The position numbers were made by a program, and so were the translations under genes. The notes beneath the pieces are model-generated. The model worked only from the letters and a program-made list of their open reading frames with translations, was not told where the DNA came from and searched no databases. Shown in pieces: positions 1,588 through 56,536 of a DNA stretch of 64,000 nt. How positions within the stretch are numbered: the stretch's first letter is position 1; every line of letters starts with the position of its first letter. The DNA is from an uncultured Acidobacteriaceae bacterium (GTDB lineage: Bacteria; Acidobacteriota; Terriglobia; Terriglobales; Acidobacteriaceae), in assembly GCA_963698865.1 (NCBI GenBank), contig CAVOSL010000002.1, forward strand, positions 166,514-230,513, in the 5' to 3' direction.

Positions 1588-1642
1588 AGTGCTGCGCACG
1601 CCGCTTCGTGTGTTCTAATCGACATCTGTTCTAATTAACAGC

Positions 1643-2521: not shown

Positions 2522-2525
2522 ACGG

Positions 2526-2578: not shown

Positions 2579-2651
2579 ACCTGCGGTGCGGAATCTTGAT
2601 CTCCCCGGATAGTTTTCGATACCCGAGACATGTAAAATCGCCCTTCGCACA

Positions 2652-8159: not shown

Positions 8160-8554
8160 CTCCGAATCGCATCACATCCGAAATCATCGGGGCGGCAATG
8201 AAGGTCCACCGTAAGCTTGGGCCGGGACTTCTCGAGTCGGCTTATGAAGCTTGCATGGAGTACGAACTGAAGACAGCCGGATTGCAGGTCGAGAGACAGA
8301 AAGCCGTGCCCCTGGTCTACGAAGCCATCAAGCTCGACTGCGGGTTTCGCGCCGACCTAGTTGTGAACGGACTAGTGGTGGTCGAACTCAAGTGTAAGGA
8401 AGCACTACATCCGGTCGACACCGCGCAACTCTTATCTCACCTCCGTTTGCTGAATCTTCCCATTGGCTTGCTTATTAACTTTCATGTCGTGCTTCTCAGA
8501 GACGGGATCCATCGACTGGTAAACAACTATCGGGAGGAGGATTTCGTGGCTTAA
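8156..8554 (+). CDS. GxxExxY protein (PD-(D/E)XK-type, 23S rRNA IVS-associated family)
   Basis: MTPNRITSEIIGAAMKVHRKLGPGLLESAYEACMEYEL contains G-LL-E-SA-Y. The ATG at 8156 overlaps the symporter stop (ATGA). Confidence 0.85.
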   Translation: MTPNRITSEIIGAAMKVHRKLGPGLLESAYEACMEYELKTAGLQVERQKAVPLVYEAIKLDCGFRADLVVNGLVVVELKCKEALHPVDTAQLLSHLRLLNLPIGLLINFHVVLLRDGIHRLVNNYREEDFVA

Positions 8555-8566
8555 GCAGAGAGCAAG

Positions 8567-8665
8567 ACCTTAAACCGCAGAGTGCGCTGAGAGATTCGCA
8601 GAGAACGCGGAGAAGTTCTCTGCGCTCTCAGCGGTTTTTCTCTGCGTTACTCTGCGGTTAAAGGC
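8567..8665. repeat. ~95-nt imperfect hairpin element built from CGCAGAG/CTCTGCG words (copy B)
   Basis: ttaaaccgcagagt pairs with actctgcggttaa, gcgctgagag with ctctcagcg, and cgcagagaac with gttctctgcg. Confidence 0.75.
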
Positions 8666-8690
8666 TTTTTGCTAGACTCGGCAACGAGGC

Positions 8691-39242: not shown

Positions 39243-42176
39243 ATGAATCCCGTCGACACCCTCGAAACCGCCAAGGCCGTCAATCCGCTGAAGCAACTTA
39301 TCCCCATCGGCCAATCCATCTGGCTCGACTACATCCGCCGCGATCTCTTCAAGAGCGGTGAACTCAAGCGCCTGATCGACGACGACGGCCTCCGCGGCAT
39401 GACCTCCAATCCCTCCATCTTTGAGAAAGCCATCGGCGACTCCACTCTCTATCAGGATTTCCTCGACACCTTCGCCAATCGCGCCGACCTCGATGCCAAG
39501 GGGCGCTACGAACTGCTCGCCATCCGCGACATCCAGGACGCCGCCGATCTCCTGAAGCCCGTCTACAAGAGCACGAATCGCCGCGACGGCTACGTCAGCC
39601 TCGAAGTCTCGCCCTTCCTCGGCCACGACACCGAAGGCACGCTCGAAGAAGCTCGCCGCCTCTGGACCGCCGTCGCTCGCGACAACATCATGATCAAGGT
39701 CCCCGGCACGCCTGAGGGTATCCCGGCATTTCGCCAGCTCATCAGCGAAGGCATCAACGTCAACGTCACGCTCCTCTTCGCGCAGGATGTCTATGAAGAA
39801 GTAGCCGCCGCCTACATCGACGGAGTCGAACGCTTCGCGGCGTCCGGCGGCGATGCCGGCCGCATCGCCAGCGTGGCCAGCTTCTTCATCAGCCGCATCG
39901 ACACCCTGGTCGATTCAATCGCCACCGACAAACTCAAAACCGAATCCGATCCCGCCCGCAAAGCCAAGCTGCAAAGCGTGATCGGCAAAGTCGCCATCGC
40001 CAACGGCAAACTGACCTACGATGCCTATCAGCGCATCTTCTCGACTCCGCGCTGGAAGGCGCTCGCCGCCAAAGGCGCACAGACGCAGCGCGTTCTCTGG
40101 GCCAGCACCAGCACAAAAAACAAAAATTATCGTGACGTGATCTACGTCGAAGAGCTCATCGGACCGGACACCGTCAATACCCTTCCGCCCGCCACGCTCG
40201 AAGCCTTCCGCGATCATGGCAAGCCTCGCCAAAGTCTCACCGAGGATCTCGACGGCGCCCGCAAGACGATGTCCGATCTCGCCGCCTCCGGCATCTCGAT
40301 GAAAGAGGTCACCGACAAGCTCACCGCCGACGGCGTCAAGCTCTTCGCCGACGCCTTCGACAAGCTTCTCGAAGCGGTCGAGAAGAACACGCATCGGCCG
40401 GACCGCCCCCAGGTCAATCCGCAGACTGCCAAACTCCCCGCCGATCTCGACGAGGCGGTAAAAAAAAACCTTAGCGACTGGCGCGCGCAAGGAAAAGTAA
40501 GACGTCTCTGGCAGCACGACGCTTCGCTCTGGACCAACGAGGACGAGTGTTCGTGGCTCGGCTGGCTCAACATTGTCGACGATCAACTCTCGAACGTAGC
40601 CAAGCTGACGGACCTCGCGGGTGAAGTCAAAGCCGGCGGCTTCACCGACATTCTTCTTCTCGGCATGGGTGGCTCCAGCCTCTGTCCCGAAGTCTTCGCG
40701 CTCACTTTTCCGCAAACCCCCGGCTTTCCGCGCCTCCACATTCTCGACTCCACCGACCCGGCGCAGATCAAGCACATCGAAGAGAAACTCGACCTCGCCA
40801 AAACTCTCTTCATCGTTTCCAGCAAATCCGGCAGCACGCTCGAGCCCAACATCTACAAGCAATATTTCTTCGAGCGCGTGCGGCAGACCCTCGGTGACAA
40901 CCCGGGGGCCCCGGCCAGCCCGGTTTTGGCTGGCCGGGGTGGTGGCAAAGCCGGCGACCACTTCATCGCCATCACCGATCCCGGCTCTAAGATGCAAGGC
41001 GTCGCCGAGCGCGACCGCTTCCGCCACATCTTCTACGGGCTCCCCACGATCGGCGGCCGCTACTCCGCGCTCTCCAACTTCGGCATGGCCCCCGCCGCCG
41101 CCATGGGCATGGACGTCAAGAAATTTCTCGACCGCACCAAGCAAATGGTCGATGCGTGCGCTGCCGCCGTTCCTGTCGCCGAAAATCCCGGCGCTATGCT
41201 CGGCATCATCCTCGGTTCCGCCGCCAATCAAGGCCGCGACAAAATCACGCTCATCACCTCGCCCGGCATTCACGATCTCGGCGCGTGGCTTGAACAACTC
41301 ATCGCCGAGTCCACCGGCAAGATCGGCAAGGGCATCATTCCGGTCGATCGCGAAACGTTAGGCGCGCCTGATGTTTACGGCAACGACCGCATCTTCGCCT
41401 ACATCCGCCTGGAGTCCGAACCCGACTCCGCTCAAGCTGCAAAAGTCTCAGCCCTAGAGAAAACCGGTCAGCCCGTAGTTCGCATCGTGCTTCCCGACAT
41501 CTACAACCTCGGCCAGGAATTCTTCCGCTGGGAAATTGCCACCGCGGTAGCCGGCTCAATCATCGGCATCAACGCCTTCAATCAACCTGATGTCGAAGCC
41601 AGCAAAATTGAAACGCGAAAGTTGACAACGGAGTACGAAAGCAAAGGCTCCCTGCCCGCCGAGCAACCGATCCTCGAAGAAGCCGGCTTCAAGTTCTTCA
41701 CCGATGCGAAGAACGCCACCGATCTTGCTAAAGCAGTCGGCAATGATCGCTCGCTCAAGAGTTATCTCCGCGCGCACCTCGCACGACTCGGTGCCAACGA
41801 CTATTTCGCCGTGCTCGCCTATATCGAGATGAACGCCGAGCACGAAGGGCTGCTGCAATCATTGCGCATGAACGTGCGCGACAAAAAGCACGTGGCCACC
41901 TGTCTCGGCTTCGGCCCGCGCTTCCTGCACTCGACCGGCCAGGCCTATAAAGGCGGCCCCAACAGCGGAGTCTTCCTGCAAATCACCTGCGACGACGCCA
42001 ACGATCTTCAAGTCCCGCAGCAGAAATACACCTTCGGAGTAGTAAAAGCAGCGCAAGCAAGAGGCGACTTCGCAGTGCTGGCAGAGCGCAATCGCCGAGC
42101 CCTGCGCGTCCACATAGGCAGCAATGTAACTGCGGGCCTGAAGAAGTTAGGGTCTCTGATCGGCGAGGCGCTGTGA
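39243..42176 (+). CDS. bifunctional transaldolase / glucose-6-phosphate isomerase fusion
   Basis: N-terminal transaldolase blocks (GMTSNPSIFEKAI, IMIKVPGT) and C-terminal PGI blocks (LLLGMGGSSL, FIVSSKSGSTLEP, GGRYSALS) in a single 977-aa ORF. Confidence 0.9.
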   Translation: MNPVDTLETAKAVNPLKQLIPIGQSIWLDYIRRDLFKSGELKRLIDDDGLRGMTSNPSIFEKAIGDSTLYQDFLDTFANRADLDAKGRYELLAIRDIQDAADLLKPVYKSTNRRDGYVSLEVSPFLGHDTEGTLEEARRLWTAVARDNIMIKVPGTPEGIPAFRQLISEGINVNVTLLFAQDVYEEVAAAYIDGVERFAASGGDAGRIASVASFFISRIDTLVDSIATDKLKTESDPARKAKLQSVIGKVAIANGKLTYDAYQRIFSTPRWKALAAKGAQTQRVLWASTSTKNKNYRDVIYVEELIGPDTVNTLPPATLEAFRDHGKPRQSLTEDLDGARKTMSDLAASGISMKEVTDKLTADGVKLFADAFDKLLEAVEKNTHRPDRPQVNPQTAKLPADLDEAVKKNLSDWRAQGKVRRLWQHDASLWTNEDECSWLGWLNIVDDQLSNVAKLTDLAGEVKAGGFTDILLLGMGGSSLCPEVFALTFPQTPGFPRLHILDSTDPAQIKHIEEKLDLAKTLFIVSSKSGSTLEPNIYKQYFFERVRQTLGDNPGAPASPVLAGRGGGKAGDHFIAITDPGSKMQGVAERDRFRHIFYGLPTIGGRYSALSNFGMAPAAAMGMDVKKFLDRTKQMVDACAAAVPVAENPGAMLGIILGSAANQGRDKITLITSPGIHDLGAWLEQLIAESTGKIGKGIIPVDRETLGAPDVYGNDRIFAYIRLESEPDSAQAAKVSALEKTGQPVVRIVLPDIYNLGQEFFRWEIATAVAGSIIGINAFNQPDVEASKIETRKLTTEYESKGSLPAEQPILEEAGFKFFTDAKNATDLAKAVGNDRSLKSYLRAHLARLGANDYFAVLAYIEMNAEHEGLLQSLRMNVRDKKHVATCLGFGPRFLHSTGQAYKGGPNSGVFLQITCDDANDLQVPQQKYTFGVVKAAQARGDFAVLAERNRRALRVHIGSNVTAGLKKLGSLIGEAL

Positions 42177-42301
42177 AGCCGCGAAGCGGTAGAAGAGCGC
42201 AGCCCACGACGGTCTTGGGTTACTTGAAATTCGATGGAGCCGCGGACGACGAAAGGAATGGTTCGAGCACAACTATCCCGCTCACAGAATGGATAGGGTT
42301 G

Positions 42302-42342
42302 GCTAAAAGCTAATAGCTAGGAGCTAACAGCTTCTAGCTCGC
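42302..42342. repeat. GCTANNA heptamer word array (tal-pgi | gnd junction)
   Basis: gctaaaa gctaata gctagga gctaaca gcttcta gctcgc. Confidence 0.65.
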
Positions 42343-42403
42343 AGTCGAAATGTAGCATTTCGTTCCAATGCTAGAAACAAGCACCAGCGTGTAAGGAGAA
42401 GCA

Positions 42404-43405
42404 ATGCAACTCGCAATGGTAGGCCTGGGCCGCATGGGCGCGAACATGACGCGCCGCCTCATGCGCGGCGGACACAAACTCGTCGTCTCCGACCTCAGCC
42501 CCGACGCTGTCAAACAACTCGCTGGCGAAGGCGCCACCGGCTCCACCTCGCTCGACGACCTCGTCACAAAACTCACCCCGCCCCGCGCCGCCTGGGTCAT
42601 GGTTCCTTCCGGCGACGCCACTGAAAAAACGGTCCAGACTCTGCTCGCCCGCATGGACAAAGGCGATACCATCATCGACGGCGGCAACAGTTTTTTCAAA
42701 GACGACGTCCGCCGCTCCGAAATGTGCGCCGCCAAAGGCGTTCACTACGTCGACGTCGGTACCAGCGGCGGCGTGTGGGGCATCGATCGCGGATACTGCA
42801 TGATGATCGGCGGCCCCAAAGAAGCCGTCCAGCGCCTCGACCCAATCTTCAAAACGCTCGCTCCCGGCCGCGGAGACATTCCTCGCACGCCCGGCTTCGA
42901 CCAGCGCAGCGCCTCCGGATCGACAGCCGAAGACGGCTACATTCACTGCGGCCCCAGCGGCTCCGGCCATTTCGTAAAAATGGTCCACAACGGCATCGAA
43001 TACGGAATTATGCAGGCCTATGCCGAGGGCTTCGACATTTTCAAGAACGCCACCAGCAAAGATCTTCCGGCCAACATTCGCTACGATCTCAACCTGCCCG
43101 ACATTGCCGAGGTTTGGCGCCGCGGCAGCGTCATCAGTTCGTGGCTGCTCGATCTCACATCCATGGCGCTGGTAGAAAATCCCGCGCTTACCGAGTACAG
43201 CGGATTCGTGCAGGATTCCGGCGAAGGCCGCTGGACCATTAACGCGGCCATCGAAGAAGCGGTGCCAGCCGAAGTGTTAACGGCCGCCCTCTACGCAAGG
43301 TTCCGTTCGCGCCAGGAGCACACCTTTGCGGATAAGATGCTCTCAGCCATGCGCCAGAAATTCGGCGGCCACGTGGAGCCAAAGGCACAGGCGAAGGCAA
43401 AATGA
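42404..43405 (+). CDS. gnd: 6-phosphogluconate dehydrogenase (decarboxylating, short form)
   Basis: [15 protein letters not shown] Rossmann motif, [19 protein letters not shown]. Confidence 0.88.
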
Positions 43406-43412
43406 GAACAGG

Positions 43413-43553
43413 AATTGAATCATTGAGTGATTGAGGCATTGAGTCATTAAAAGACTAAGCGGTTGAGCCATTAACCGGTGGGGATGCGGTCTCAAATTAC
43501 TGAATTACCAAATGACTCAATACCTCAATGATTCAATGACTCAATCTCTCAAT
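43413..43553. repeat. inverted NATTGAGN octamer arms (36 and 43 nt) around a 62-nt loop (gnd | zwf junction)
   Basis: Left arm aattgaatcattgagtgattgaggcattgagtcatt. The reverse complement of the right arm ends ...cattgaggtattgagtcatt. Confidence 0.8.
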
Positions 43554-43567
43554 AACAGGACTCTCCC

Positions 43568-45109
<1,542 letters not shown>

Positions 45110-45118
45110 AAGAGGAGC

Positions 45119-45259
45119 AATTTGTAATTTCTAATTTGTAATTGGTAATTTGTCGCAAGGGCCGTGCACAGTTTGAAGGCCAATGGGGCAGCAACCGTCA
45201 CCAAAGTCACGAATTGCCGGGTTTCAAAATTACAAATTACCAATCACAAATTACAAATT
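45119..45259. repeat. inverted AATTNGT heptamer arms (~35 nt each) around a 72-nt loop (zwf | pgl junction)
   Basis: aatttgtaatttctaatttgtaattggtaatttgt ... aaaattacaaattaccaatcacaaattacaaatt. The right arm ends 4 nt before the pgl ATG. Confidence 0.8.
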
Positions 45260-45262
45260 CCC

Positions 45263-46003
45263 ATGCCCGCAACACGCACCATCGCAGTCTCCTCCACCGC
45301 CGCCGATCTCTTCCACGCTGCCGCCGAGGAATTCACCAAAGTCGGCCGACAAGCCATCGGTGCCCTGGGCCGCTTCATCGTCGCCCTCTCCGGAGGATCC
45401 ACTCCCAGGAGTCTCTATTCCTTGCTCGCTACCAGCTACCCTGACTTTCCCTGGGCGCGCACCTACCTCTTTTTCGGCGACGAGCGTCACGTCCCGCCCA
45501 CCGACACCGACAGCAACTACCGCATGGTCAACGAGTCCTTGCTCTCAAAAATTGCCATCCCCGCGCAAAATGTTTTTCGAGTCAAAGCCGAACTCCCCGA
45601 TGCCGCCGCGGCCGCCGCCGACTACGAATCGCAAATCAGAAAATTCTTCGAGCTCAAGGCCAGCCAATTCCCGCGCTTCGATCTGATACTCCTCGGCCTC
45701 GGGCCCGACGGCCACACCGCCTCCCTCTTCCCCGATTCCGAGGGCCTGAAAGAAACGACCAAACTGGCCATGGCCAACTGGGTGGAGAAATTCAAGACGC
45801 ACCGCATCAGCTTCACATTTCCTGTATTGAACAACGCCGGAGAAGTGATCTTCCTGGCCAGCGGCTCAGACAAATCCGAGATGGTCCACGAAGTTCTAGA
45901 GGGCAAGCCCACGCCGCCACTTCCAGCCCAGCAAGTCCAACCAATAAACGGACGTCTGCTCTGGATGCTAGACGAAGCCGCCGCCGCCAAACTCAAGCAT
46001 TAA
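45263..46003 (+). CDS. pgl: 6-phosphogluconolactonase
   Basis: ATG at 45263 (MPATRTIAV). ALSGGSTP, FFGDERHVP, LGLGPDGHTASLFP. Confidence 0.9.
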   Translation: MPATRTIAVSSTAADLFHAAAEEFTKVGRQAIGALGRFIVALSGGSTPRSLYSLLATSYPDFPWARTYLFFGDERHVPPTDTDSNYRMVNESLLSKIAIPAQNVFRVKAELPDAAAAAADYESQIRKFFELKASQFPRFDLILLGLGPDGHTASLFPDSEGLKETTKLAMANWVEKFKTHRISFTFPVLNNAGEVIFLASGSDKSEMVHEVLEGKPTPPLPAQQVQPINGRLLWMLDEAAAAKLKH

Positions 46004-46114: not shown

Positions 46115-46516
46115 CTAAGCCGCGCTGCGCCAGTCCCCAATCTCGCGCAATCCCTCGCCGCGCGAGTGCTCAAACAATCGAACCTTATGCCGGCTGTGCT
46201 CGAACTCATGAATATCCGCCCACACCTCCGCCTGCCATCCCATCTCGTGGGTCGAAGACTCGCCGCAAGATGCGCACCGCGTATGAAACGTCACTCCCGG
46301 CTTTCGCCCATGCGAATCCTGCAACTCGATAAATACGCAGCGCACCTCTTCAATCTCTTCATCTTCGCCGAGAACGTGCTCGTACCGCAGCAGGTATCCA
46401 AACCCAAGCTTGCGCGCCTCCGCCTCCGCCTCCTCGCGGGTATGGAACGGCCCATACTCAGCCCGCAACTGCTCCGTCGAGTCGCAAGCCATCCAGAAAA
46501 CGTCCTTGTTTTCCAT
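46115..46516 (-). CDS. hypothetical protein
   Basis: 133-aa ATG ORF with acidic/His-rich composition. No recognisable motif. Confidence 0.4.
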   Translation of the reverse strand: MENKDVFWMACDSTEQLRAEYGPFHTREEAEAEARKLGFGYLLRYEHVLGEDEEIEEVRCVFIELQDSHGRKPGVTFHTRCASCGESSTHEMGWQAEVWADIHEFEHSRHKVRLFEHSRGEGLREIGDWRSAA

Positions 46517-46951
46517 ACCTAGATACCAGATCCCAGCCTAAGCGACTCTATCACCGCTCTCGACCGTAGCGCCGGCGTCCCGCCGGCAGTTCCGAGAGCG
46601 TCTCGCTCTCGGCCCCGTCTCCACAACCGCAAACGCAAGGGCCGAATCGCCAAGCACTCCCCCAAACAATCGAGCAATTCAATGACCGAGCAGTCTACCC
46701 TATCCACTCCCAGCAAGCCTTATCCAACAAGGCCAAGAACCCCTCATATCCCAATGAAATACTGCAACTTACCAGCGACCCAAAACTCGCGCGTAGAACC
46801 CCGCGCCAACGAGTGCGCTGCTTCCCCTGTGAAATTCCTTGCCCTCCAGGCGCACGAACAAGAAATCCCGACGACCTACGCTCCCCCACAATTCGCCCCT
46901 TGAGGTACAATCGCACCCTCTGTCAAACCGGGCGTGAAAAGGAGAAAACAA

Positions 46952-47197
46952 ATGGGGTTCATCACGTGGATCGTGGTAGGGCTCATCGCCGGCTGGCTCG
47001 CCGGCCAGGTCATGAAGGGTGGAGGCTACGGCGTTCTCGTCGACATCATTCTCGGCATCCTCGGAGGCGTAGTCGGCGGCTGGGTTTTCGGAGCCTTGGG
47101 AATCTGGCCCGGCGGCGGACTCCTGGGCGCGATCATCGTCGCCTTCGTAGGCGCGGTCATTCTAGTCGGACTCACCCGCCTGATCAAGAAGGCCTAG
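46952..47197 (+). CDS. GlsB/YeaQ/YmgE-family small membrane stress protein
   Basis: AAGGAG lies 7 nt before the ATG. MGFITWIVVGLIAGWLAGQVMKGGGYGVLVDIILGILGGVVGGWVF. Confidence 0.85.
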   Translation: MGFITWIVVGLIAGWLAGQVMKGGGYGVLVDIILGILGGVVGGWVFGALGIWPGGGLLGAIIVAFVGAVILVGLTRLIKKA

Positions 47198-47426: not shown

Positions 47427-49661
47427 ATGAGCATCGGCAAGAACGACGTTCTCTTCGTTTTTCCGCCTGCCCCCAGAAATGCCGCCGCCTTCAAAAATCA
47501 TCTCGGGGTGGCATACCTCCGCGCGGCACTCGCCCGCGAAGGAATGGCCACAGTCCAATATCTGAACAGTAACCTTGGCCCGATCGACGCAGTCGCGCGC
47601 GACATCATTCAACAGAAGTGTCCCATCGTCGGTTTCACGGTGTATGACACAAATGCGCCTTTGTGTATTTCCATCGCCCAAAGCATTAAGCGCCAAAAAC
47701 CTGAAATCCGAATCGTGTTCGGCGGGCCCGCCGCCACTTTCACGGCGCGTCCCCTGATGGAAAGGCACGCGGTGATCGATGCCTGCGTCATGGGGGAGGC
47801 CGAAGAGACAGCCGCGCGAATCTTCGTGAAGTTGCTGGGCGGTGGTGAAGTCGACGATGCGGAGCCGGGAGTCGCTTTCCGCAGAGGCGGCGAGGTGGTT
47901 TGTACGCCATTGCCTCCTTTGGTTGGTGCAACTCAACCAGGCGTACAGGGATTGCTGGACAGCACCCCGTCACCTTATCTCTCGGGAATTCTCGCCGACG
48001 GTCAGGAAGGTGTGCTGACGGGCCGGGGCTGCACGCATCATTGCCAATACTGTTGCTTTGCCGCGCTGGGCAGGATGCGCCTACGCCTGCATTCCATTGA
48101 AAGGGTCGTTGCGGAACTGGAAAGCATCGCAGAACACCAGAAGCGAACCGGGAGACATTATCCGGTTTCTATCCAGGATGATGCGTTCACCCTACTGCCA
48201 TCGCGTGCCAAAGCCTTATGCCAGGCGATCGCGGATCGTAAGTTCAGTCTCCTCCTTTCTTGTGTCACGCGCGCCGACACGGTTGATGAGGAATTGATAA
48301 AACTGATGCGCGAGGCGGGCTTCGGGAGCATCGCCTTCGGCCTGGAGAGCGCAGTGCCTTCCGTTCTGCGAGCCATCGGTAAAGTACGGCCTCCCGATTG
48401 GCGTGACCCCGATTTGGCGCCAGAGCGGCAGTTTCTGGAACGGGTGAGGAACAGCATCCGTGTAGCCAGCAAATGCGGATTAAATGTAGGTGTGAGTATC
48501 ATCCTGGGTTTGCCGACCGAGACGCCGATCGACGGCGCCGAGACTCTTCGCTTCGTGAAGCAACTGCCGGTTGATTACTACGCGCACAATTTCTTGAAAA
48601 TATTTGCCGGCACGCCCCTGTGGACGACACATGACGATTATCGAATCGCTTGCACTGTAGACAAGATTGGCCTGCCCGAAACCACTGAGTATTCCTACGA
48701 CGTCAAGTCGCTGAAACCTGGTCCGAAATGCGAACTGGAGAACGATGCCCATCTGGTTCGGCTTTTGGCCAGAGATGCGCTTTACGGCTGTGGGGCATCG
48801 TCAACAGCAGGGAAAGGAATAAGCGCTGTGATCCTTAAGACGGGAGAGTTGTCGCCCCAGACAGCGGAATGGCTGCGGAGCATTCTCACAGTCGGCGGTA
48901 TCGTGGTGCAGATCTACCCGGCCATGAAGAGGAGCGGCGAGAAGCTGAGGCTGGATCGAGACCGCCATATTCTCCGCGAGCACGCGGTTCCTGTCCAGCA
49001 CTACATCCAGGTTCTACCGAAGAGCAGGAAGAGCAAGCATAACTCCCACGGCGGAGACGAGACCTTGGAGGTTGTATGTGCCGGCGTGGACATCATCCGT
49101 ATGCATAAGCCGGCGCTACTTCAGATCACCGCCTCACAAGACGCTAGTCCTCTGGCCGCTTGGATCAAGGGCCAGGACACCCAGGCGACAGTTTGTGAAG
49201 TATCGAAATATTTGGACCATTCGAGCGGACTCATTCCAATAATGGATCGGATTGAGGCTGAGGATTCACCTTCTCCTTTGCAGCGAATGCCTGTCCCGCC
49301 GCAGGTAAAGTATGCAGGCCGCTGGCTTAGAGGAAAAACTCCGTGTCTATCGCTAACCCGAATCGAGGTTTCCAGCTGCGGGGAAATTCGCAGCTGCCGG
49401 CAGGGTAAACCCATTGGAAAGGTTGGAGACTCCCGGAAAATCCTGGCGAGGCGATTGGCCCGGTTAGCAAGAGCTGTGGAGCAACGACGTGGCTGTGCAA
49501 AGTGTCGGAACAACCAGTGTCCGCGATGTCCATTTCCCGGACTTAACGATTTGAGGTATTGCCAAGTAATGACCAAACGAGAGCGATCTCTACGGTTGCT
49601 CAACTGGGTAGAGATATATTCTCGGCTCCCGTTGCTCTTGGCGCGACAGCGAGTTAGTTGA
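47427..49661 (+). CDS. B12-binding-domain radical SAM protein with C-terminal SPASM-like Cys-rich extension
   Basis: N-terminal B12-binding-like region (VLFVFPP, IVGFTVYD, IVFGGPAAT). CxxxCxxC at 48030-48053 (GCTHHCQYC). C-terminal cluster at 49344-49562: C-x11-C-x5-C...GCAKCRNNQCPRC...YC. Confidence 0.75.
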   Translation: MSIGKNDVLFVFPPAPRNAAAFKNHLGVAYLRAALAREGMATVQYLNSNLGPIDAVARDIIQQKCPIVGFTVYDTNAPLCISIAQSIKRQKPEIRIVFGGPAATFTARPLMERHAVIDACVMGEAEETAARIFVKLLGGGEVDDAEPGVAFRRGGEVVCTPLPPLVGATQPGVQGLLDSTPSPYLSGILADGQEGVLTGRGCTHHCQYCCFAALGRMRLRLHSIERVVAELESIAEHQKRTGRHYPVSIQDDAFTLLPSRAKALCQAIADRKFSLLLSCVTRADTVDEELIKLMREAGFGSIAFGLESAVPSVLRAIGKVRPPDWRDPDLAPERQFLERVRNSIRVASKCGLNVGVSIILGLPTETPIDGAETLRFVKQLPVDYYAHNFLKIFAGTPLWTTHDDYRIACTVDKIGLPETTEYSYDVKSLKPGPKCELENDAHLVRLLARDALYGCGASSTAGKGISAVILKTGELSPQTAEWLRSILTVGGIVVQIYPAMKRSGEKLRLDRDRHILREHAVPVQHYIQVLPKSRKSKHNSHGGDETLEVVCAGVDIIRMHKPALLQITASQDASPLAAWIKGQDTQATVCEVSKYLDHSSGLIPIMDRIEAEDSPSPLQRMPVPPQVKYAGRWLRGKTPCLSLTRIEVSSCGEIRSCRQGKPIGKVGDSRKILARRLARLARAVEQRRGCAKCRNNQCPRCPFPGLNDLRYCQVMTKRERSLRLLNWVEIYSRLPLLLARQRVS

Positions 49662-49709
49662 TGTGAAGAGGGTGAAGGCCGATAGAAAGCAAGACAGAGG
49701 AGGTTCCAT

Positions 49710-49904
49710 ATGAAATCGAAAGATAGTGTTCAGTATCTGGTGCGCAAACAAGCGGGCAAGGATGCAGTAATCATCCTAAACAAGGTCGATAAAATGCTTA
49801 AGCAGGATGTGGCTCGCGCGAAGATCGAAAGCGCGTTAGCGGTGGAGCTCACCGTTCACCTGAGGAGACAGTTGGTTAATCTTGTCCCCCCTATCCAACC
49901 TTAG
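49710..49904 (+). CDS. 64-aa hypothetical protein (candidate precursor peptide or accessory factor)
   Basis: GGAGG at 49699-49703 lies 6 nt before the ATG, which is 48 nt downstream of the rSAM stop on the same strand. MKSKDSVQYLVRKQAGKDAVIILNKVDKMLKQDVARAKIESALAVELTVHLRRQLVNLVPPIQP. Confidence 0.5.
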   Translation: MKSKDSVQYLVRKQAGKDAVIILNKVDKMLKQDVARAKIESALAVELTVHLRRQLVNLVPPIQP

Positions 49905-50038: not shown

Positions 50039-52432
50039 TCAGTTGGGAAGATGGAGTGTCCTAAGGATCTGGACATAGCGGGGGTCCTCGCGGAGAGGCC
50101 TCAGCAGCATGTCGGTTTTGATTAAGCAGAGACCAACATCGTGCTGCCGGTAGGCGCGGTTCAGCCAATCAAAGGCTTGATCTGTGTCCCTTCGATATGC
50201 GTAAACTTGCGCAATCTGATAAGCGCAAGTATTTTGATTTTGTGAGATCAAACTTGCCAGCGCAGCGTCGGATTCCTGGTGTCGCCCCAGATCCTGGAAG
50301 GCAAGTCCCATTCCAAGGTTGTGCTGGCAACCTGCCGGTTCCCTTTCCATCTCAGTCAGGGCTTCCCGGGGACGCCGTTGCGCCAGGTAAACCTCGCCGC
50401 GAGTTTCATGGGCCCAGACTTCGTTGGGATTGAGATCAAGGGCTTTCGTGAGATTGACAAGTGCTTCATCGTAGCGTCCCAGGTCTCGCAAGTACTGTGC
50501 GAGTTGCCGGTGTCGTCCGGCCACAAGCGGATCGAGAGCTACCGCCCGATTCATAAGCCCAACAGCCTCCTCCTGGCGGCCCAGACAGTTAGCGATAAAC
50601 GCGCTCGAGTCGAGATTGCTAGCGTCTCCAGGCGCTAGCTCCAGTGCTCTTTTCAGGGTTGACTCTGCAGCTGGGCAATTCAACTCCGTGAATAGCTGGA
50701 TCATGCTGAGAACGCGGTATCCTTCGGCCAGATTTGGATCCAACTCGATAGCCCTCTCGATGTCGCTTCGCGCGTTCCCTATCGCCTCAGAGTATTCGGT
50801 CCATCCGATTACACCGGAGGTTGCTGTGAGATAAGCGCGTAAGGCGTAGGCCGCGGCGTAATGCGGATCTGCTACGATCGCTTGATCTACGTACTCCAGA
50901 GCTTTTTGCCGGGATGCCTTGTCCACCCTGTTGGCAAAGTACCGCGATTGCAGGAAATCCTGAAAGGCTACGGGGCTCCTCGTTTGAGATGTACGACGTA
51001 TGTCCGGAGACACTCCAGGAAGCAGCTTAAGTCGCAGCGCCGAAGTGACGTCTTTCGCAATATCATCCTGCACTGTAAGGACGTCATTTAAATCACGATC
51101 GTAGGACTCTGACCAGATATGAAAGCCGTCACCCGCTTTAATAAGCTGCGCCGTGATCCGAACACGCGTCCCGTCTCTTCGCACGCTCCCTTCAAGCACG
51201 TTGTCCACGTTGAGTTTCCGTCCGATCACGCGCAGGTCTTCGTTCTTCCCTTTGAACTGAAATGCTGAGGTACGAGCCACCACCTTCAGGTTCGGGATTC
51301 TGGCGAGATCGTTCAGGATTTCTTCTGCTAATCCGTCCGAGAAGTACTCTTGGTCATGGCTAGGACTCAGGTCGGCAAACGGCAGCACTGCAATAGAAGC
51401 TGTAATCACTGGTCCGGTATTCCCTTGGACATACTGCTGCCACAAGCCCAAAGCGACAATCGCCAGAGCGAGGATCGCGGCGCCGACCATCGAAAACATG
51501 CCCCTATGAAAACTTACCTCCCGCTCAGATTGCCCATTGATAGCGTTGAATTTCGATGAACCGGTTTCCGTACAATGCTCCAGGCGTCGCAAATCGATGG
51601 CCAGTTCCTTCGCCGACTGGTAACGGTTCTCCGGTTCCTTCTCCATGCATTTCCCGATGATCCTCTCCAATTCCGGAGACAACCTGGAATTGAGCGCCGC
51701 AGGTGGGAGTGGTAGCCTGCTCAGAATCGCACTAATCAGTTGCGCTTGCTCCAACTTGCCGAATGGTCGTTGCCCGGTGGCCATCTCGTAGAGTACGGAT
51801 CCGGCCGCATGCAGGTCCGTGCGAGCGTCAATCTCTGCGCCCAGCAACTGTTCCGGCGTCATGTAGGGCAGAGTCCCGGCCATGGTCCGTGTCTCGCCCA
51901 GACTCTCCGTGGTGGCCGTCGTCGTCACCGGCAGCCGTAGCATGGCCAACCCGAAATCCAGAATCTTCAGCCGTCCATCGCTCGTAACCCGCAAGTTGCC
52001 GGGCTTGAGGTCCCGATGAACGACCCCGCGCTCATGGGCCGCCGCCAAGCCTTCCGCAAGCTGGATTCCCAGTCGGACGATCTCCTTTTCCGGCAGCGGT
52101 CGACCGGCCAGCTTTTCGCTCAATGTAATCCCGGGGATGTACTCCATCACCAGGAAGTCCACTCCTTGTTGCGAGTCGAAATCGTGGATCGTGGCGACGT
52201 TGGGATGATTGAGCTGCGAGAGAACCAGAGCTTCTTTGTGAAAATGCTTGCGCGCGGATTCGTCGCTGAGAGTACCGGGGGGAAGGACTTTGATGGCGAC
52301 ATCACGGGGTAAGTGCTCGTCACGGGCGCGATAGACTTCTCCCATGCCGCCCGCGCCGATCTTTTCGACGATGCGATAGTGGTCCAGCGTTTGGCCAACA
52401 AGTGTATCTTGGCCTACGACCTGGCTCGCCAT
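50039..52432 (-). CDS. Ser/Thr protein kinase with TM, periplasmic TolB-N-like module and TPR repeats
   Basis: GAGGMGEVYRARD, HRDLKPGN, DFGLA, TLPYMTPE. One TM helix. IAVLPFADLS...YFSDGLAEEI module. C-terminal TPR-like repeats. Confidence 0.9.
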   Translation of the reverse strand: MASQVVGQDTLVGQTLDHYRIVEKIGAGGMGEVYRARDEHLPRDVAIKVLPPGTLSDESARKHFHKEALVLSQLNHPNVATIHDFDSQQGVDFLVMEYIPGITLSEKLAGRPLPEKEIVRLGIQLAEGLAAAHERGVVHRDLKPGNLRVTSDGRLKILDFGLAMLRLPVTTTATTESLGETRTMAGTLPYMTPEQLLGAEIDARTDLHAAGSVLYEMATGQRPFGKLEQAQLISAILSRLPLPPAALNSRLSPELERIIGKCMEKEPENRYQSAKELAIDLRRLEHCTETGSSKFNAINGQSEREVSFHRGMFSMVGAAILALAIVALGLWQQYVQGNTGPVITASIAVLPFADLSPSHDQEYFSDGLAEEILNDLARIPNLKVVARTSAFQFKGKNEDLRVIGRKLNVDNVLEGSVRRDGTRVRITAQLIKAGDGFHIWSESYDRDLNDVLTVQDDIAKDVTSALRLKLLPGVSPDIRRTSQTRSPVAFQDFLQSRYFANRVDKASRQKALEYVDQAIVADPHYAAAYALRAYLTATSGVIGWTEYSEAIGNARSDIERAIELDPNLAEGYRVLSMIQLFTELNCPAAESTLKRALELAPGDASNLDSSAFIANCLGRQEEAVGLMNRAVALDPLVAGRHRQLAQYLRDLGRYDEALVNLTKALDLNPNEVWAHETRGEVYLAQRRPREALTEMEREPAGCQHNLGMGLAFQDLGRHQESDAALASLISQNQNTCAYQIAQVYAYRRDTDQAFDWLNRAYRQHDVGLCLIKTDMLLRPLREDPRYVQILRTLHLPN

Positions 52433-52504
52433 GGGGAAAGCACTCCTTCCCCCGCCTTCTCAAGCAAATCCTAGGCTCGGCGGTGGTGCAAGTCAATGTA
52501 CTCG

Positions 52505-52751
52505 TCTGGCGGCGTCGCCGGGGACAATGACTACGCTCTTCCAGCGTCGTCAAATCCAGCGGCTCATTGCGCTTGAGCCAGCGATAGAAGGTCTGCCGGC
52601 TGATGCCAAAGTGACGGCAAGTATGAGCCACGTTTCCGCAGCGTCGATAAAAATCCATCCCGGCCAATCGCACCCGCGCTTCCCGGCTCAACTCCACTCC
52701 GGTCCCAGGCAGTCGCCCCGAACCAGGCGGTTTTCCCCCGCGAATTTGCAT
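52505..52751 (-). mobile_element. IS481-like transposase N-terminal HTH remnant (truncated)
   Basis: LSREARVRLAGMDFYRRCGNVAHTCRHFGISRQTFYRWLKRNEPLDLTTLEERSHCPRRRRQ resembles IS481-family HTH leaders. No DDE domain follows, and the ORF runs into the kinase upstream region. Confidence 0.55.
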
Positions 52752-52882: not shown

Positions 52883-54337
52883 ATGTTCGAACAAGCCTTC
52901 AAAAACATTGACGACGTTCTTCGCAAGGAAGCCGGCTGCACCACCGAACTCGATTACACCGAGCAGACTTCCTGGCTGCTCTTCCTGAAATATCTCGAAA
53001 ACCTCGAACAGGAGCGCGCCACCGAGGCGGCGCTGCAAGGCCGGAAGTATTCGCCGCTGCTCGAAAAGGCCTACCAATGGGAAAGCTGGGCCGCGCCCAA
53101 GGGCAAGGACGGCAAACTCGACCACAACAAAGCCATGACCGGAGACGATCTCCGCGACTTCGTCAATACGAAGCTCTTTCCCTACCTTCAGGGCTTCAAG
53201 AAAAAGGCCAGCGGCCCGAACACCATCGAATACAAAATCGGGGAGATCTTCGGCGAGATCAAGAACAAGATTCAGAGCGGCTACAACCTGCGCGAAATTC
53301 TCGACCATATCGACGAACTTCAATTCCGCTCGCAGACCGAGAAGCACGAACTGTCGCATCTCTACGAGGCGAAAATCCGCAACATGGGCAACGCCGGGCG
53401 CAATGGCGGCGAGTATTACACTCCGCGGCCGCTCATCCGCGCTATCGTGCAGGTCGTCAAGCCGCGCATCGGCGAACGCATCTATGACCCGGCGGTGGGA
53501 TCGGCGGGTTTCCTGTGCGAGTCGTTTGAGTACCTGACCAAAAATAAGAACCTGACCACGAAAGACGTACGTACGCTTCAGGAAAAGACCTTCATCGGCA
53601 AGGAGAAGAAGTCGCTCGCCTACGTGATTGCCATCATGAACATGATCCTGCATGGCATCGAGGCGCCGAACATCCTTCACGTCAACACGCTCACGGAAAA
53701 CACAGCCGATATACAGGAGAAAGAACGCGTCGAAGTGATCATGGCGAATCCGCCTTTCGGCGGCAAAGAGCGCAAGGAGGTACAACAGAACTTTTCCATC
53801 CGCACCGGCGAGACGGCGTTTCTGTTTCTCCAGCACTTCATCAAGATGCTGAAGGCGGGCGGGCGCGCCGGCATCGTGATCAAGAATACGTTTCTTTCGA
53901 ATACCGACAACGCTTCGGTGAGCCTGCGCAAGGTGCTGCTCGAAAGCTGCGCGCTGCACACGGTGCTCGACTGCCCCGGCGGGACGTTCCAGGGCGCGGG
54001 CGTGAAGACGGTGGTGCTCTTCTTCGAGAAAGGCGCGCCCACGCGGAAGATCTGGTATTACCAGCTCGATCCGGGACGCAATCTGGGCAAGACCAATCCG
54101 CTTAACGACGACGATCTGGCGGAGTTCGTGAAGCTGCAAAGGACTTTTGCCGACTCGGCGAAGTCGTGGACGGTGGATGCCAAGGGCATCGACAAGGCTA
54201 CGTTCGATCTTTCGGTGAAGAATCCGAATGGCGGCGAGGAGATTGCGCACCGCACGCCGCAGGAAATCATGGATGAGATTGCCGCGCTGGATGCCGAGAG
54301 CGCGGAGGTGCTGGCGGGGATTCGGGCGCTGCTATGA
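52883..54337 (+). CDS. hsdM: type I restriction-modification methyltransferase subunit M
   Basis: HsdM N-terminal domain (FKNIDDVLRKEAGCTTELDYTEQTSWLLFLKYL), GEYYTPRPL, DPAVGSAGFL, ANPPFGG. Confidence 0.93.
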   Translation: MFEQAFKNIDDVLRKEAGCTTELDYTEQTSWLLFLKYLENLEQERATEAALQGRKYSPLLEKAYQWESWAAPKGKDGKLDHNKAMTGDDLRDFVNTKLFPYLQGFKKKASGPNTIEYKIGEIFGEIKNKIQSGYNLREILDHIDELQFRSQTEKHELSHLYEAKIRNMGNAGRNGGEYYTPRPLIRAIVQVVKPRIGERIYDPAVGSAGFLCESFEYLTKNKNLTTKDVRTLQEKTFIGKEKKSLAYVIAIMNMILHGIEAPNILHVNTLTENTADIQEKERVEVIMANPPFGGKERKEVQQNFSIRTGETAFLFLQHFIKMLKAGGRAGIVIKNTFLSNTDNASVSLRKVLLESCALHTVLDCPGGTFQGAGVKTVVLFFEKGAPTRKIWYYQLDPGRNLGKTNPLNDDDLAEFVKLQRTFADSAKSWTVDAKGIDKATFDLSVKNPNGGEEIAHRTPQEIMDEIAALDAESAEVLAGIRALL

Positions 54338-55464
54338 GGGACGGCTGGAAGAAGCAATCATTCGAGAGCTGCATCGAACGGGTGACCTATACCCAGAAGA
54401 TTCAGCGCAAGGACTTCTTGGGTGATGGCGCGTACCCGATCGTGTCGCAAGAAGAGAGCTTCATAAATGGCTATTGGGATAACGAGGACGATCTCTTCAA
54501 GGTCACCACGCCAGTCGTTATATTCGGCGACCACACAAAGGTTCTAAAATATGTCGATTTCGATTTCGTGCTTGGCGCTGACGGGGTGAAGATCTTACAG
54601 CCGCGTGAGTTTCTGGTTCCGAAATTCTTTCTTTACCGACTGCAGGCGGCGAGCCTTGATTCTCTTGGCTACGCCCGGCACTACAAACTGCTGAGAGAGC
54701 TTGAGATTGCCTACCCGTCTCTTCCCGAACAGCGGCGGATCGTCGGCATCCTCGACGAGGCGTTTGCGGGCATCGCCACCGCCAAAGCCAATGCCGAAAA
54801 GAATCTGCAAAACGCCCGCGCCCTCTTTGAAAGCTACCTCCAATCGCTCTTCACCCAGCGCGGACTGGGCTGGATTGAGAAGCGGCTTGACGAACTTTGT
54901 ACCTTCACGAGCGGGGGCACGCCGCCGAAGAACAACGTCAGTTATTGGCGGGGCAAGATTCCTTGGGTTTCTGGACGGGACATGAAATCGACCCGGCTGT
55001 GCGATTCGCAACTGCACATTTCTCAATCTGCGGTTGATGGTTCCTCAACTCGCATGGCGCCGGCAGGGGCACTGCTGATCCTTGTGCGCGGAATGGGCCT
55101 GGCCCATGGCGCCCAAATCGCCGAACTGATGGCTCCCTGTGCGTTCAATCAGGACATCAGAGCCATGCACCCCAAACCCGAGCTAATACCTCGCTATCTT
55201 CTCTTTGCCTTGCGAGACAGAATCAATGCGAGCGAGACCGTTCTAAGCAATGCGGCTCATGGAACGCTGAAGATAGACTCAGCCCAATTGGAGAGCGTGA
55301 CGATTCCTATCCCTTCGCGCCAGGTGCAGCAGAGAATTGTGGCTACGATCGACGGGCTTTCGGATGAAACATGGCGCCTTGAATCTATCTACCAGCGCAA
55401 GCTCGCCGCGCTGGAGGCGCTGAAGAAGTCGCTGCTGCACCGGGCGTTTACGGGCCAGCTTTGA
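54334..55464 (+). CDS. hsdS: type I restriction-modification specificity subunit S
   Basis: ATGA overlap with hsdM. Two target-recognition halves separated by conserved helices (LPEQRRIVGILDEAF..., SRQVQQRIVATIDGL...). Confidence 0.88.
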   Translation: MRDGWKKQSFESCIERVTYTQKIQRKDFLGDGAYPIVSQEESFINGYWDNEDDLFKVTTPVVIFGDHTKVLKYVDFDFVLGADGVKILQPREFLVPKFFLYRLQAASLDSLGYARHYKLLRELEIAYPSLPEQRRIVGILDEAFAGIATAKANAEKNLQNARALFESYLQSLFTQRGLGWIEKRLDELCTFTSGGTPPKNNVSYWRGKIPWVSGRDMKSTRLCDSQLHISQSAVDGSSTRMAPAGALLILVRGMGLAHGAQIAELMAPCAFNQDIRAMHPKPELIPRYLLFALRDRINASETVLSNAAHGTLKIDSAQLESVTIPIPSRQVQQRIVATIDGLSDETWRLESIYQRKLAALEALKKSLLHRAFTGQL

Positions 55465-55475
55465 GGTCGTTCTCT

Positions 55476-55549
55476 CAGTTGGTGACAAATTGTCACCAAC
55501 TGGAATTGCCTCGCATAGCGGTCAACTGGTGACAATCTGTCACCGGTTG
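55476..55549. promoter_or_regulatory. two copies of palindrome GGTGACA-N3-TGTCACC (a third lies inside the next gene at 55854-55880)
   Basis: cagttggtgacaaattgtcaccaactg (55476-55502, perfect 13-bp arms) and caactggtgacaatctgtcaccggttg (55523-55549). Confidence 0.5.
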
Positions 55550-55673
55550 AAAATGGCGGCAGGCGGCGTGAGAAAAGAGCAAGATCAACAACAAGAGCAG
55601 GGCAACAGCAAGGGCAATAGCAACACCAACGACAACGGCGGCGGACAGGAGTGTCCGCCCTACAAGGAGCGCC

Positions 55674-56536
55674 ATGGAGCACCTGCCCGTGCAGTTCGAA
55701 AATCAGGCCATCCGCCGAGTTTTTGACGAGCCGACCGAAACCTGGTGGTTTTCCGTGGTGGACATCGTGCAAGTACTCACCCAGCAGCCCGATCCCCAGA
55801 CCGCGCGCAAATACTGGAACAAGCTGAAAGAACGGCTGGGAAACGAAGGTAGTCAAGTGGTGACAAATTGTCACCAGTTGAAAATGACGGCCGGTGACGG
55901 CAAGCAACGCCTTACCGATGTGGCTACTGCGGGGACGCTGTTGCGTCTGGTGCAGTCCATCCCCAGCCCCAAGGCCGAATCGATCAAGGTGTGGCTAGCC
56001 AGGGTTGGGTATGAGCGGATGCAGGAGATGGCCGACCCGGCATTGTCGCTCGACCGCGCGCGCGAGACCTGGCAAAAGCACGGACGCAGCGAGAAGTGGA
56101 TTCAGCAGCGCATGACTGGGCAGGAAACCCGCAATAAACTGACCGACTATTGGTCGGAGCATGAGATTAAACAGGGAGAAGAGTACGCCATTCTCACCAA
56201 CTTATTCATGAGGAGTGGGCCGGGGTGAGCGTCAAGGCGCACAAGGACCTAAAGGGTCTCAAGAGCCAGAACCTGCGCGATCATATGAGCGAGGCGGAAT
56301 TGATTTTTACCGCGCTGGCCGAGCTTTCTACCCGTCAACTGGCTGAAAGTGTGGAGGCCACCGGGATGACGGAGAACAAGTCGGCAGCGAGGCAGGGCGG
56401 CCGGATCGCGAAGAAGGCGCGCCTCGATCTGGAGAGCAAGACCGGGCAGCGAGTCGTCAGTGGAGCAAATTTTCTGCCGCCGCGAGGACCGGTCCAAAAG
56501 CAGATCGGCGGCGCGAAAAACCGCAAGAAAAAATGA
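55674..56536 (+). CDS. Bro-N / DinD-like (DNA-damage-inducible protein D-like) protein, frameshifted in this assembly near 56200-56205
   Basis: Bro-N-like N-terminus (FENQAIRRVFDEPTETWWFSVVDIVQVL, SIPSPKAESIKVWLA). After ...YAILTN the sequence IHEEWAGVSVKAHKDLKGLKSQNLRDHMSEAELIF continues in the frame of ORF 56225..56536. Confidence 0.7.

Follow-up and report, generated by a model that had tools for sequence, protein, structure and literature searches.

What is made by a gene that joins a cobalamin-binding radical S-adenosylmethionine (SAM) core to a C-terminal cluster of cysteines, and what is the role of the small open reading frame (ORF) that follows it? This question is raised by a locus in a stretch of 64,000 nucleotides (the window) from an uncultured Acidobacteriaceae bacterium (GenBank assembly GCA_963698865.1, contig CAVOSL010000002.1, positions 166,514 to 230,513), for which a first-pass annotation had proposed, as its leading hypothesis, an undescribed cassette resembling those for peptides synthesised ribosomally and modified post-translationally (RiPPs). 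This hypothesis was strengthened by the pairing of the enzyme with the small ORF in all 73 loci open to evaluation, as well as by a C-terminal domain which is very probably related to SPASM domains. The reading that we favour, with moderate confidence, is that the two genes form an unnamed RiPP-like maturase/precursor pair, present mainly in Acidobacteriota, whose enzyme probably C-methylates the tail of the peptide.

A predicted class B radical SAM enzyme outside the named families

The 744-amino-acid product of the gene (features and coordinates are given in Table 1) is, judging from its domains, a class B radical SAM enzyme, for which use of cobalamin (vitamin B12) is predicted. The N-terminal Rossmann region of B12-binding type that had been described for this ORF was confirmed by a PF02310 match above the cut-off, and the cysteine codons previously read as a radical SAM motif (at nucleotides 48030, 48042 and 48051) encode C202, C206 and C209, all three of which are strictly conserved among 26 aligned homologs with identities down to 53% (alignment A1). 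An AlphaFold2 model of the enzyme was built on this 26-sequence alignment (mean predicted local distance difference test score, pLDDT, of 78.6). The best solved structures found for it with Foldseek were CysS, TokK, TsrM, MgmA/QCMT, OxsB and AprD4, and the matches to B12-radical SAM structures had E-values of 2e-16 to 1e-11 and extended over 420-540 columns, with the B12 region included.

Comparison with the curated NCBIfam families gave no score that reached a cut-off. The cut-offs of the B12-radical SAM families matched range from 281 to 750 bits, and the enzyme scored 122.5 bits against a cut-off of 750 for ApyD, 91 against 600 for PhpK, 82 against 578 for HpnJ, 75 against 481 for BchE, 68 against 282 for TIGR03975, and 67 bits for QCMT, with the similarity confined to the B12 domain and the radical SAM core. 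Because its fold and Pfam matches are those of B12-radical SAM proteins and its NCBIfam scores lie below the cut-offs, the enzyme was placed in class B outside every named family.

More than 387 homologs of the enzyme were found; among the 120 best, almost all were full-length (~740 amino acids) and most were metagenomic. They are labelled in public databases as 'radical SAM protein', 'YgiQ' or 'BchE-like' only. Matches in genomes were nearly all to metagenome-assembled genomes of Acidobacteriota (Terriglobales, Bryobacteraceae, Korobacteraceae and Acidiferrum). In one homologous locus (L017) a second B12-radical SAM gene of 450 amino acids lies three genes downstream (7823..9175).

The barrel ends near amino acid 400, some 240 residues before the first cysteine of the C-terminal domain (C640), and the corresponding linker has a median length of 217 residues in 58 complete relatives. 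The intervening alpha/beta region, in which strands alternate with helices, was modelled as a block with pLDDT mostly between 80 and 90; it has no Pfam or NCBIfam match, and an HMM (hidden Markov model) of it picked up close relatives only. Among its cysteines, C455 is invariant and C435 and C590 are nearly so in the 26-homolog alignment.

A small ORF with a conserved leader and a variable tail accompanies the enzyme

The window was compared with 23 genome loci and 63 metagenome loci. Using an HMM of the ~58-residue N-terminal region (the leader HMM), the small ORF was detected 17-233 nucleotides past the stop codon of the enzyme gene in 64 of the 73 loci that could be evaluated (E-values from 1e-4 to 1e-27), and the remaining nine carry a similar but more divergent helical small ORF in the same position; the ORF is therefore paired with the enzyme in every one of the 73. 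The earlier suggestion that a small downstream ORF might co-occur with the homologs is thus borne out, and the ORF has a conserved leader followed by a variable tail. An in-frame translation 'RRIV-M' upstream of the small ORF recurs in other loci because an AGGAG-type ribosome-binding site is conserved there.

The consensus of the leader is M..K..V..LLRK.LGKE.ADA.L.KIDKM.......IEK.I..DL..HIEKQV, and dN/dS ratios of 0.14-0.39 in most pairs indicate purifying selection on this region. Position 3 of the peptide is a conserved Thr/Ser. For the window (49710..49880) and its closest relative (L024) a ratio of ~1.0 was obtained over 52 codons, against 0.14-0.39 for other pairs of that clade; this value may be noise or may reflect fast evolution of the peptide.

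The tail differs between loci in sequence and also in length, the longest having about 76 residues. Its composition is distinctive, Pro being enriched six-fold, Gly 2.8-fold, and Ile and Val 1.5-fold. Ile or Val occurs in 50 of the 52 distinct tails, and in 36 the last residue is Lys or Arg. In a large subgroup the tail has alternating Ile/Val residues and reads KIGPIxPIKVKPIQVSIKPAIKP..PKINTGVSVKVGP..RGxK. The tail of one peptide (L044) contains five tandem copies of HKPPVNIG, recalling multi-core RiPP precursors.

No Pfam or NCBIfam family was matched by the small ORF, nor was NHLP, Nif11 or any other leader family, and all 44 of its database clusters are annotated as 'hypothetical'. No hydrophobic segment or export signal was seen in the peptide, and the lack of an export signal argues against simple secretion.

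The C-terminal cysteine domain is very probably a divergent relative of SPASM

The first-pass annotation had described a C-terminal run of cysteines (nucleotides 49344..49562) with the count and spacing of auxiliary-cluster domains. Seven cysteines of this region are indeed invariant in the 26-homolog alignment (C640, C657, C690, C693, C698, C701 and C712), and G652 is nearly so; the first spacing had to be corrected from C-x11-C to C-x10-C, and the middle cysteine of the initial triplet (C651) proved not to be conserved. The conserved pattern is C640-x11-G652-x4-C657, 32 residues, C690-x2-C693-x4-C698-x2-C701, 10 residues, C712. In the SPASM signature (CX9-15GX4C, a gap, CX2CX5CX3C, a gap, C) the first and last elements fit the enzyme, and the centre reads Cx2Cx4Cx2C in the enzyme.

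A profile of the domain was searched against 1.84 billion representative proteins, and the superfamily thus defined comprises 384 clusters at 50% identity. In the best 150 of these clusters the equivalents of C657, C690, C693, C698, C701 and C712 are 96-99% conserved, a level which, from the alignment, is far beyond chance, and the first cysteine is found in one or another of three neighbouring columns; the central motif across the wider superfamily is Cx2Cx5Cx2C. At least 58 of the best 150 clusters are complete fusions of a B12-radical SAM core to the cysteine domain.

Forty-one diverse members of the superfamily were scanned against NCBIfam. TIGR04085 (SPASM) was matched by 22 of them (best E 1.9e-5), TIGR04148 by 18, PapB by seven and QhpD by six, and further matches were to NirJ2 and to the SuiB-type, lachnocin, CcpM, KxxxW and SCIFF maturases. 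The models TIGR04148, PapB, QhpD, NirJ2, lachnocin, CcpM, KxxxW and SCIFF all describe radical SAM/SPASM proteins. Since more than half of these members (22 of 41) match TIGR04085 itself, and others match SPASM maturases, it is highly probable from sequence comparison that the cysteine domain is a divergent SPASM homolog. The SPASM-likeness proposed earlier is in this way upheld through the superfamily, though the window protein itself gives no match.

The full-length model is in keeping with this assignment: the cysteine region comprises a beta-hairpin (residues 645-655), a helix (670-688), the cysteine loop and a second helix (708-717), and this hairpin-helix-cysteine-loop fold is what we take to be the SPASM topology of the anSME, SuiB and CteB structures. 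If the analogy to anSME is assumed to hold, C690, C693, C698 and C712 would ligate one cluster and C640, C657 and C701 would hold the other, for which the fourth ligand would perhaps be C590, or the site would be open. The domain probably accommodates one auxiliary [4Fe-4S] cluster, or two.

A number of results weigh against the SPASM assignment. The SPASM/twitch models PF13186 and TIGR04085 gave no match to the enzyme at E<=10, with either the whole protein or the C-terminus alone as query, and PF13186 matched only one of the 26 close homologs (E 0.19); of the domain models that the first-pass annotation had named for an hmmscan search, PF02310 and PF04055 were thus found on the window protein and the two SPASM models were not. 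Profiles of the cysteine domain (alignments A2 and A4) found no solved SPASM structure among PDB sequences; the only matches were to zinc fingers and cytochromes at chance level, the weak ones being the zinc-binding proteins RecR and DnaI. A separate AlphaFold2 model of residues 618-744 had a pLDDT of 63 and no Foldseek match. Alignment by hhalign to a three-sequence alignment of PqqE and SuiB put G-x4-C and CxxC in register only weakly (probability 4.5%, P 0.009). The domain also lies well past the barrel, not directly after it, and its centre is Cx2Cx4Cx2C, not Cx2Cx5Cx3C. With the full-length model, Foldseek returned only B12-radical SAM and generic radical SAM cores; as the program aligns one region per target, this search bears on those cores and not on the C-terminal domain. 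In one study, of 29 sequences found to have a SPASM domain, only 6 had it annotated in Pfam (bioRxiv 10.1101/717249).

In 22 of the top 150 clusters, the cysteine domain is carried by class-I SAM methyltransferases which have no radical SAM core. The function of the domain need not therefore be that of an auxiliary cluster for radical chemistry, and on this distribution it may be a docking or zinc module. The domain would then be a SPASM-derived zinc or structural module for peptide docking, used for recognition by an otherwise ordinary B12-radical SAM methylase, an account which we consider possible but unlikely. It would agree with the methyltransferase fusions, with the 217-240 residues that separate the domain from the barrel, and with the CxxC...CxxC arrangement, which also suits zinc ribbons, as well as with the weak RecR and DnaI matches. 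However, six to seven cysteines conserved at 96-99% in a SPASM pattern exceed the need of a single zinc site, and matches to SPASM and SPASM maturases outnumber those to every other family.

A docking role would also agree with similarity to MpaB, a 'DUF-RRE' protein of daptide pathways (RRE, RiPP recognition element). The daptide_RRE (MpaB) model gave a weak match to residues 643-682 of the enzyme (49353..49472; E 2e-4 to 2e-3) and was matched by 18 of the 41 superfamily members at model positions ~155-195, in some up to position 297 (alignment A4). In the enzyme the match falls at model positions 156-195, within the 'DUF' part of MpaB and outside the RRE at its C-terminus (PMC10028931). On sequence similarity, this suggests that the uncharacterised 'DUF' half of MpaB (PMC10028931) is related to the SPASM-derived domain of the superfamily.

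The methyltransferase fusions (P0143, P0153, P0176, P0185, P0192, P0226 and the gene at 1351..3123 of locus L087) are HemK/MTS-like proteins of 500-630 amino acids. Their contexts, seen in three loci, are not obviously RiPP-like; in L087 a 92-amino-acid ORF overlaps the start of the gene.

Distant relatives and the proposed reaction

Distant enzymes that combine a B12 domain, a radical SAM core and the cysteine domain (~30% identity in the latter) are found in RiPP-like clusters, and they too reached no NCBIfam cut-off. P0164 is one of three tandem B12-radical SAM genes, at least two of which have the cysteine domain, and its neighbours encode a precursor that has a leader of nitrile-hydratase type (NHLP) and VVGG as its cleavage motif, a protein resembling asparagine synthetase, and a methyltransferase; by its gene content this locus has the layout of a proteusin cluster. 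P0137 has a 74-amino-acid NHLP-like ORF upstream and an M50 peptidase gene downstream, and P0141, which is duplicated in tandem, has a 43-amino-acid ORF upstream and is followed by a sensor histidine kinase. Two or three tandem B12-radical SAM genes are present in the distant clusters L088 (2166..7120) and L090 (3352..10615).

We infer both that the peptide is the substrate and what type of reaction it undergoes. The enzyme would dock onto the conserved N-terminal region of the peptide, SAM would be reductively cleaved at the cluster held by C202, C206 and C209, and unactivated carbons in the Pro/Gly/Ile/Val-rich tail would be modified, with the SPASM-like domain serving in electron transfer and/or in holding the substrate. 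Methylcobalamin-dependent C-methylation of aliphatic residues would be the most likely reaction, C-methylation being the default chemistry of class B enzymes; epimerisation or formation of a C-C crosslink would also be possible. The alternating Ile/Val residues of the common tail would, we speculate, suit repeated methylation or epimerisation. All three chemistries have been described for B12-radical SAM enzymes that act on peptides: ApyD methylates the C-beta of Tyr in a RiPP to give beta-methyl-Tyr (PMC10635010), PbsB introduces a C-C crosslink into a peptide (PMC12257519) and QCMT catalyses epimerisation as well as methylation (PMC13469106). The roles of auxiliary clusters in SPASM enzymes generally have been proposed and are unsettled (PMC9407657).

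Several observations count against a maturase/precursor pair. In the clade of the window the tails are short and dissimilar, that of the window having only about seven residues, and no residue is common to all tails. No conserved protease, exporter/transporter or pathway gene was found beside the pair in 87 loci, nor was a recognisable RRE; the enzyme has no PqqD or RRE Pfam match, its only signal of this kind being the weak one to the daptide_RRE model. The small protein could instead be an accessory subunit or regulator of an enzyme whose substrate is not a peptide (for instance a lipid, a cofactor or a sugar), as is the case for many class B enzymes. The ~58 N-terminal residues do resemble a small folded helical domain and not a typical short leader, the very short tail and the missing protease and exporter would be expected of such a protein, and the scores for HpnJ, BchE and PhpK-type enzymes are comparable to those for RiPP enzymes. 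We nevertheless judge this explanation improbable: the named non-peptide families score far below their cut-offs, no pathway genes are conserved beside the pair, a variable Pro/Gly/Ile/Val-rich tail on a conserved domain is the pattern of a substrate, the distant relatives lie in proteusin-like RiPP clusters, and the SPASM relatives matched are peptide maturases. Nor are the homologs embedded in hopanoid or bacteriochlorophyll loci, the known pathways that had been considered at the outset.

A receptor-type Ser/Thr kinase is the third component of the module

After all flanking ORFs of the 87 loci had been clustered, the small ORF and a Hanks-type Ser/Thr kinase were the only recurring neighbours of the enzyme. 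The kinase of the window had initially been taken as a mere boundary of the locus, a view that was abandoned because the gene proved to be a third, conserved part of the module: of the 27 loci with at least 3 kb on both flanks, 22 have a kinase no more than 1.5 kb from the enzyme/peptide pair. Among 50 adjacent kinases, 26 are downstream and convergent, 22 are upstream and co-directional, and two have other orientations. One locus (L005, 10885..16446) has two tandem kinases in the module. The kinase domain is moderately conserved among loci and the sensor region is often unrelated; mean normalised similarity was 0.14 for the peptide tail, 0.16 for the sensor domain, 0.42 for the kinase domain and 0.57 for the enzyme.

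The kinase most likely controls the enzyme/peptide pair or responds to the product of the pair; it is a candidate for regulating the pair, for phosphorylating the peptide or for sensing a product once released. The last of these would make the module a signalling circuit like ComQ-ComX-ComP of Bacillus, in which a modifying enzyme, a pro-peptide and a membrane sensor histidine kinase act together and the modification is isoprenylation. Here, the enzyme would modify the pro-peptide, the tail would be released and the receptor kinase would sense it, a scheme to which we give a low probability. Similarly doubtful, and drawn from analogy, is the notion that the tail would be the cognate ligand or substrate of the kinase, with the sensor diversifying along with the tail in a self-contained Acidobacteriota counterpart of the ComQXP and agr pherotype systems that is made of wholly different components.

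The adjacency of the kinase in the well-flanked loci, nearly always in one of two orientations and with all other flanks differing, is consistent with such a circuit, as are the single transmembrane helix, the intact catalytic motifs and the large C-terminal region that is predicted to be extracellular. Within the module, variation is also greatest in the tail and the sensor domain, and a distant relative (L088) is followed by a sensor histidine kinase. Set against this, the peptide has neither a signal sequence nor a hydrophobic segment, an exporter or protease is not conserved, several loci with the long conserved type of tail (L006, L012, L017 and L021) have no adjacent kinase, and such kinases are numerous in Acidobacteria. 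The correlation of tail similarity with sensor similarity, controlled for the enzyme, was weak (rho 0.21) and came from phylogenetically non-independent pairs, and was not used as evidence.

Genomic surroundings

The flanks are as they had been described, with a GlsB/YeaQ-type gene (46934..47197, PF04226) on one side and the convergent Ser/Thr kinase (50039..52432) on the other. Further out in the window, the module is preceded by a core pentose-phosphate operon and followed by a type I restriction-modification system. No cobalamin riboswitch or other RNA element was found near the genes at E<=1, and scans for promoters and terminators around the genes gave nothing above shuffled sequences.

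Table 1. Positions in the window of the enzyme gene, the small ORF and the kinase gene, and of their parts
Feature	Coordinates	Strand	Details
B12-binding radical SAM enzyme gene with C-terminal SPASM-like domain	47427..49661	+	744 aa, ATG start
Cobalamin-binding Rossmann domain, aa 26-131	47502..47819	+	PF02310, E 3.6e-19, 69.2 bits against cut-off of 32.1
Radical SAM core, aa 197-377	48015..48557	+	PF04055, E 6e-17, above gathering score
CxxxCxxC within radical SAM core	48030..48053	+	C202, C206, C209
Family-specific alpha/beta middle region between barrel and Cys domain, aa ~405-617	48639..49277	+	Confidently modelled
Divergent SPASM-like Cys-rich domain (very probable), aa ~625-720	49299..49586	+	Invariant Cys; SPASM matches in superfamily
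Shine-Dalgarno GGAGG	49699..49703	+	6 nt before ATG of small ORF
Small ORF, putative precursor	49710..49904	+	64 aa, immediately downstream of enzyme gene
Conserved helical N-terminal region of small ORF, aa 1-57	49710..49880	+	Leader HMM
Variable tail LVPPIQP	49881..49901	+	About 7 residues
Receptor-type (Hanks-type) Ser/Thr kinase	50039..52432	-	797 aa; Pkinase E 1e-45, TPR
Kinase domain, aa 19-273	51614..52378	-	VAIK, HRD and DFG intact
Single transmembrane helix of kinase, aa 312-331	51440..51499	-	Transmembrane prediction
C-terminal TPR-containing sensor region of kinase, aa ~340-797	within 50039..52432	-	TPR matches

The impression of an AT-rich stretch was retained in part. The GC content of the enzyme gene (0.565) is below the window mean (0.581), with that of the small ORF at 0.487, and GC at third codon positions is 0.62 in the enzyme gene and 0.70-0.79 in zwf and pgl; the drop is a marginal one, the enzyme gene being at the 18th percentile of 2.2-kb windows. 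The idea of an AT-rich island gained by horizontal transfer was rejected because the decrease in GC is only marginal.

It was also considered whether the enzyme and kinase form an anti-phage defence system. PADLOC assigned PDC-M51A to the enzyme (E 4e-17) and PD-T4-6 to the kinase, and the restriction-modification system is just downstream; these matches, however, extend over no more than the radical SAM core and the kinase domain, both of which are generic, PADLOC gave no match to the small ORF, and the restriction-modification system is not conserved near homologs, which together make a defence function very improbable.

The pentose-phosphate operon (39243..46003) comprises a 977-amino-acid transaldolase-phosphoglucose isomerase fusion, a 6-phosphogluconate dehydrogenase-like gene, zwf and pgl. 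A 133-amino-acid ORF (46115..46516, minus strand), which separates pgl from the GlsB-type gene, has only a sub-threshold DUF7848 match and is not conserved near homologs. A 143-amino-acid ORF (52320..52751, minus strand) with HTH_28/HTH_23, a helix-turn-helix of transposase type, overlaps the kinase gene at its 5' end and may be the remnant of a mobile element bordering the module. The type I restriction-modification system occupies 52883..58702, with HsdM at 52883..54337 and HsdS at 54334..55464; HsdR is apparently split into 56533..57687 (ResIII) and 57692..58702 (Helicase_C/EcoEI_R_C), which may be due to a frameshift or indicate a pseudogene.

Comparison with known systems

The module works like the B12-radical SAM RiPP pathways and like the pairs of SPASM maturases and precursors, and lies outside the named families of both. 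With the B12-radical SAM enzymes of RiPP pathways (ApyD, NF050148; PoyB/PoyC-type, TIGR03975; PbsB; QCMT/MgmA), whose substrates are ribosomal peptides or proteins (PMC10635010, PMC12257519, PMC13469106), the enzyme shares the B12 domain and the radical SAM core. It is to these that it shows its best NCBIfam similarity and best fold matches, and it likewise has a small precursor-like ORF adjacent. They differ in lacking the C-terminal ~340 amino acids of the enzyme (the middle region and the SPASM-like domain); ApyD carries an RRE instead, and the precursor family and the kinase association of the window module are also different.

The SPASM maturases (TIGR04085; anSME, PqqE, AlbA, SuiB, CteB, PapB and QhpD) have in common with the enzyme the seven-cysteine form of C-x(9-15)-G-x4-C, a four-cysteine cluster and a final C, the hairpin-helix-cysteine-loop topology (predicted in the enzyme) and the association with a small peptide gene. 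In contrast to the enzyme, they have no B12 domain and their SPASM domain directly follows the barrel, whereas in the enzyme there is a B12 domain and ~240 amino acids intervene. Their central motif is Cx2Cx5Cx3C, compared with Cx2Cx4Cx2C in the enzyme and Cx2Cx5Cx2C in the wider superfamily; the window protein is below detection for every SPASM model, and its cysteine domain is also found on proteins that have no radical SAM core.

In proteusin clusters (NHLP-leader, polytheonamide-type), as in the window, a ~60-amino-acid helical leader precedes a Val/Ile/Gly-rich core and the modifying enzymes are B12-radical SAM proteins, and distant relatives with the same cysteine domain are found in such a cluster (L090/L091). 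The leader of the window, however, has no NHLP or Nif11 match, and there is no double-glycine motif, epimerase, dehydratase, protease or transporter; where proteusins have multiple B12-radical SAM C-methyltransferases, the window module has a single enzyme together with a kinase. The ComQ-ComX-ComP system shares with the module a layout of three genes, for an enzyme, a small peptide that varies at its C-terminus and a membrane kinase whose sensor part is variable; its locus, too, lacks a dedicated exporter or protease. Its isoprenylation and histidine kinase are set against a radical SAM enzyme and a Hanks-type Ser/Thr kinase in the window, and the likeness is one of analogy only.

The architecture of the enzyme had been called unusual, and it can still be called so, given that no curated NCBIfam cut-off is reached and that B12-binding and SPASM/twitch radical SAM enzymes are treated in the literature as separate subgroups (PMC9477430, PMC8950095, PMC9204698). 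No described fusion of B12 and SPASM domains was found in the searchable literature, which is incomplete, so that this is not proof of absence. What is new in the module is the fusion of a B12-radical SAM core to a SPASM-derived domain, which is widespread and unnamed, the precursor-like peptide family, and the conserved partnership with a receptor Ser/Thr kinase.

Significance

The occurrence of B12 and SPASM-like domains in one protein is not rare, and it brings together both types of cofactor domain. The strict pairing of the enzyme with a new family of small peptides provides a ready-made and directly testable hypothesis of enzyme and substrate. Should the SPASM-like domain bind clusters, cobalamin chemistry and that of auxiliary clusters could be coupled by the enzyme on a peptide; if the domain binds none, it would represent a portable, SPASM-derived peptide-handling module, as its presence on non-radical methyltransferases may indicate. 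Acidobacteriota are an abundant phylum of soil whose secondary metabolism has been little studied. A receptor Ser/Thr kinase is an unusual companion of a RiPP-like pair, and in these bacteria it may tie peptide modification to signalling.

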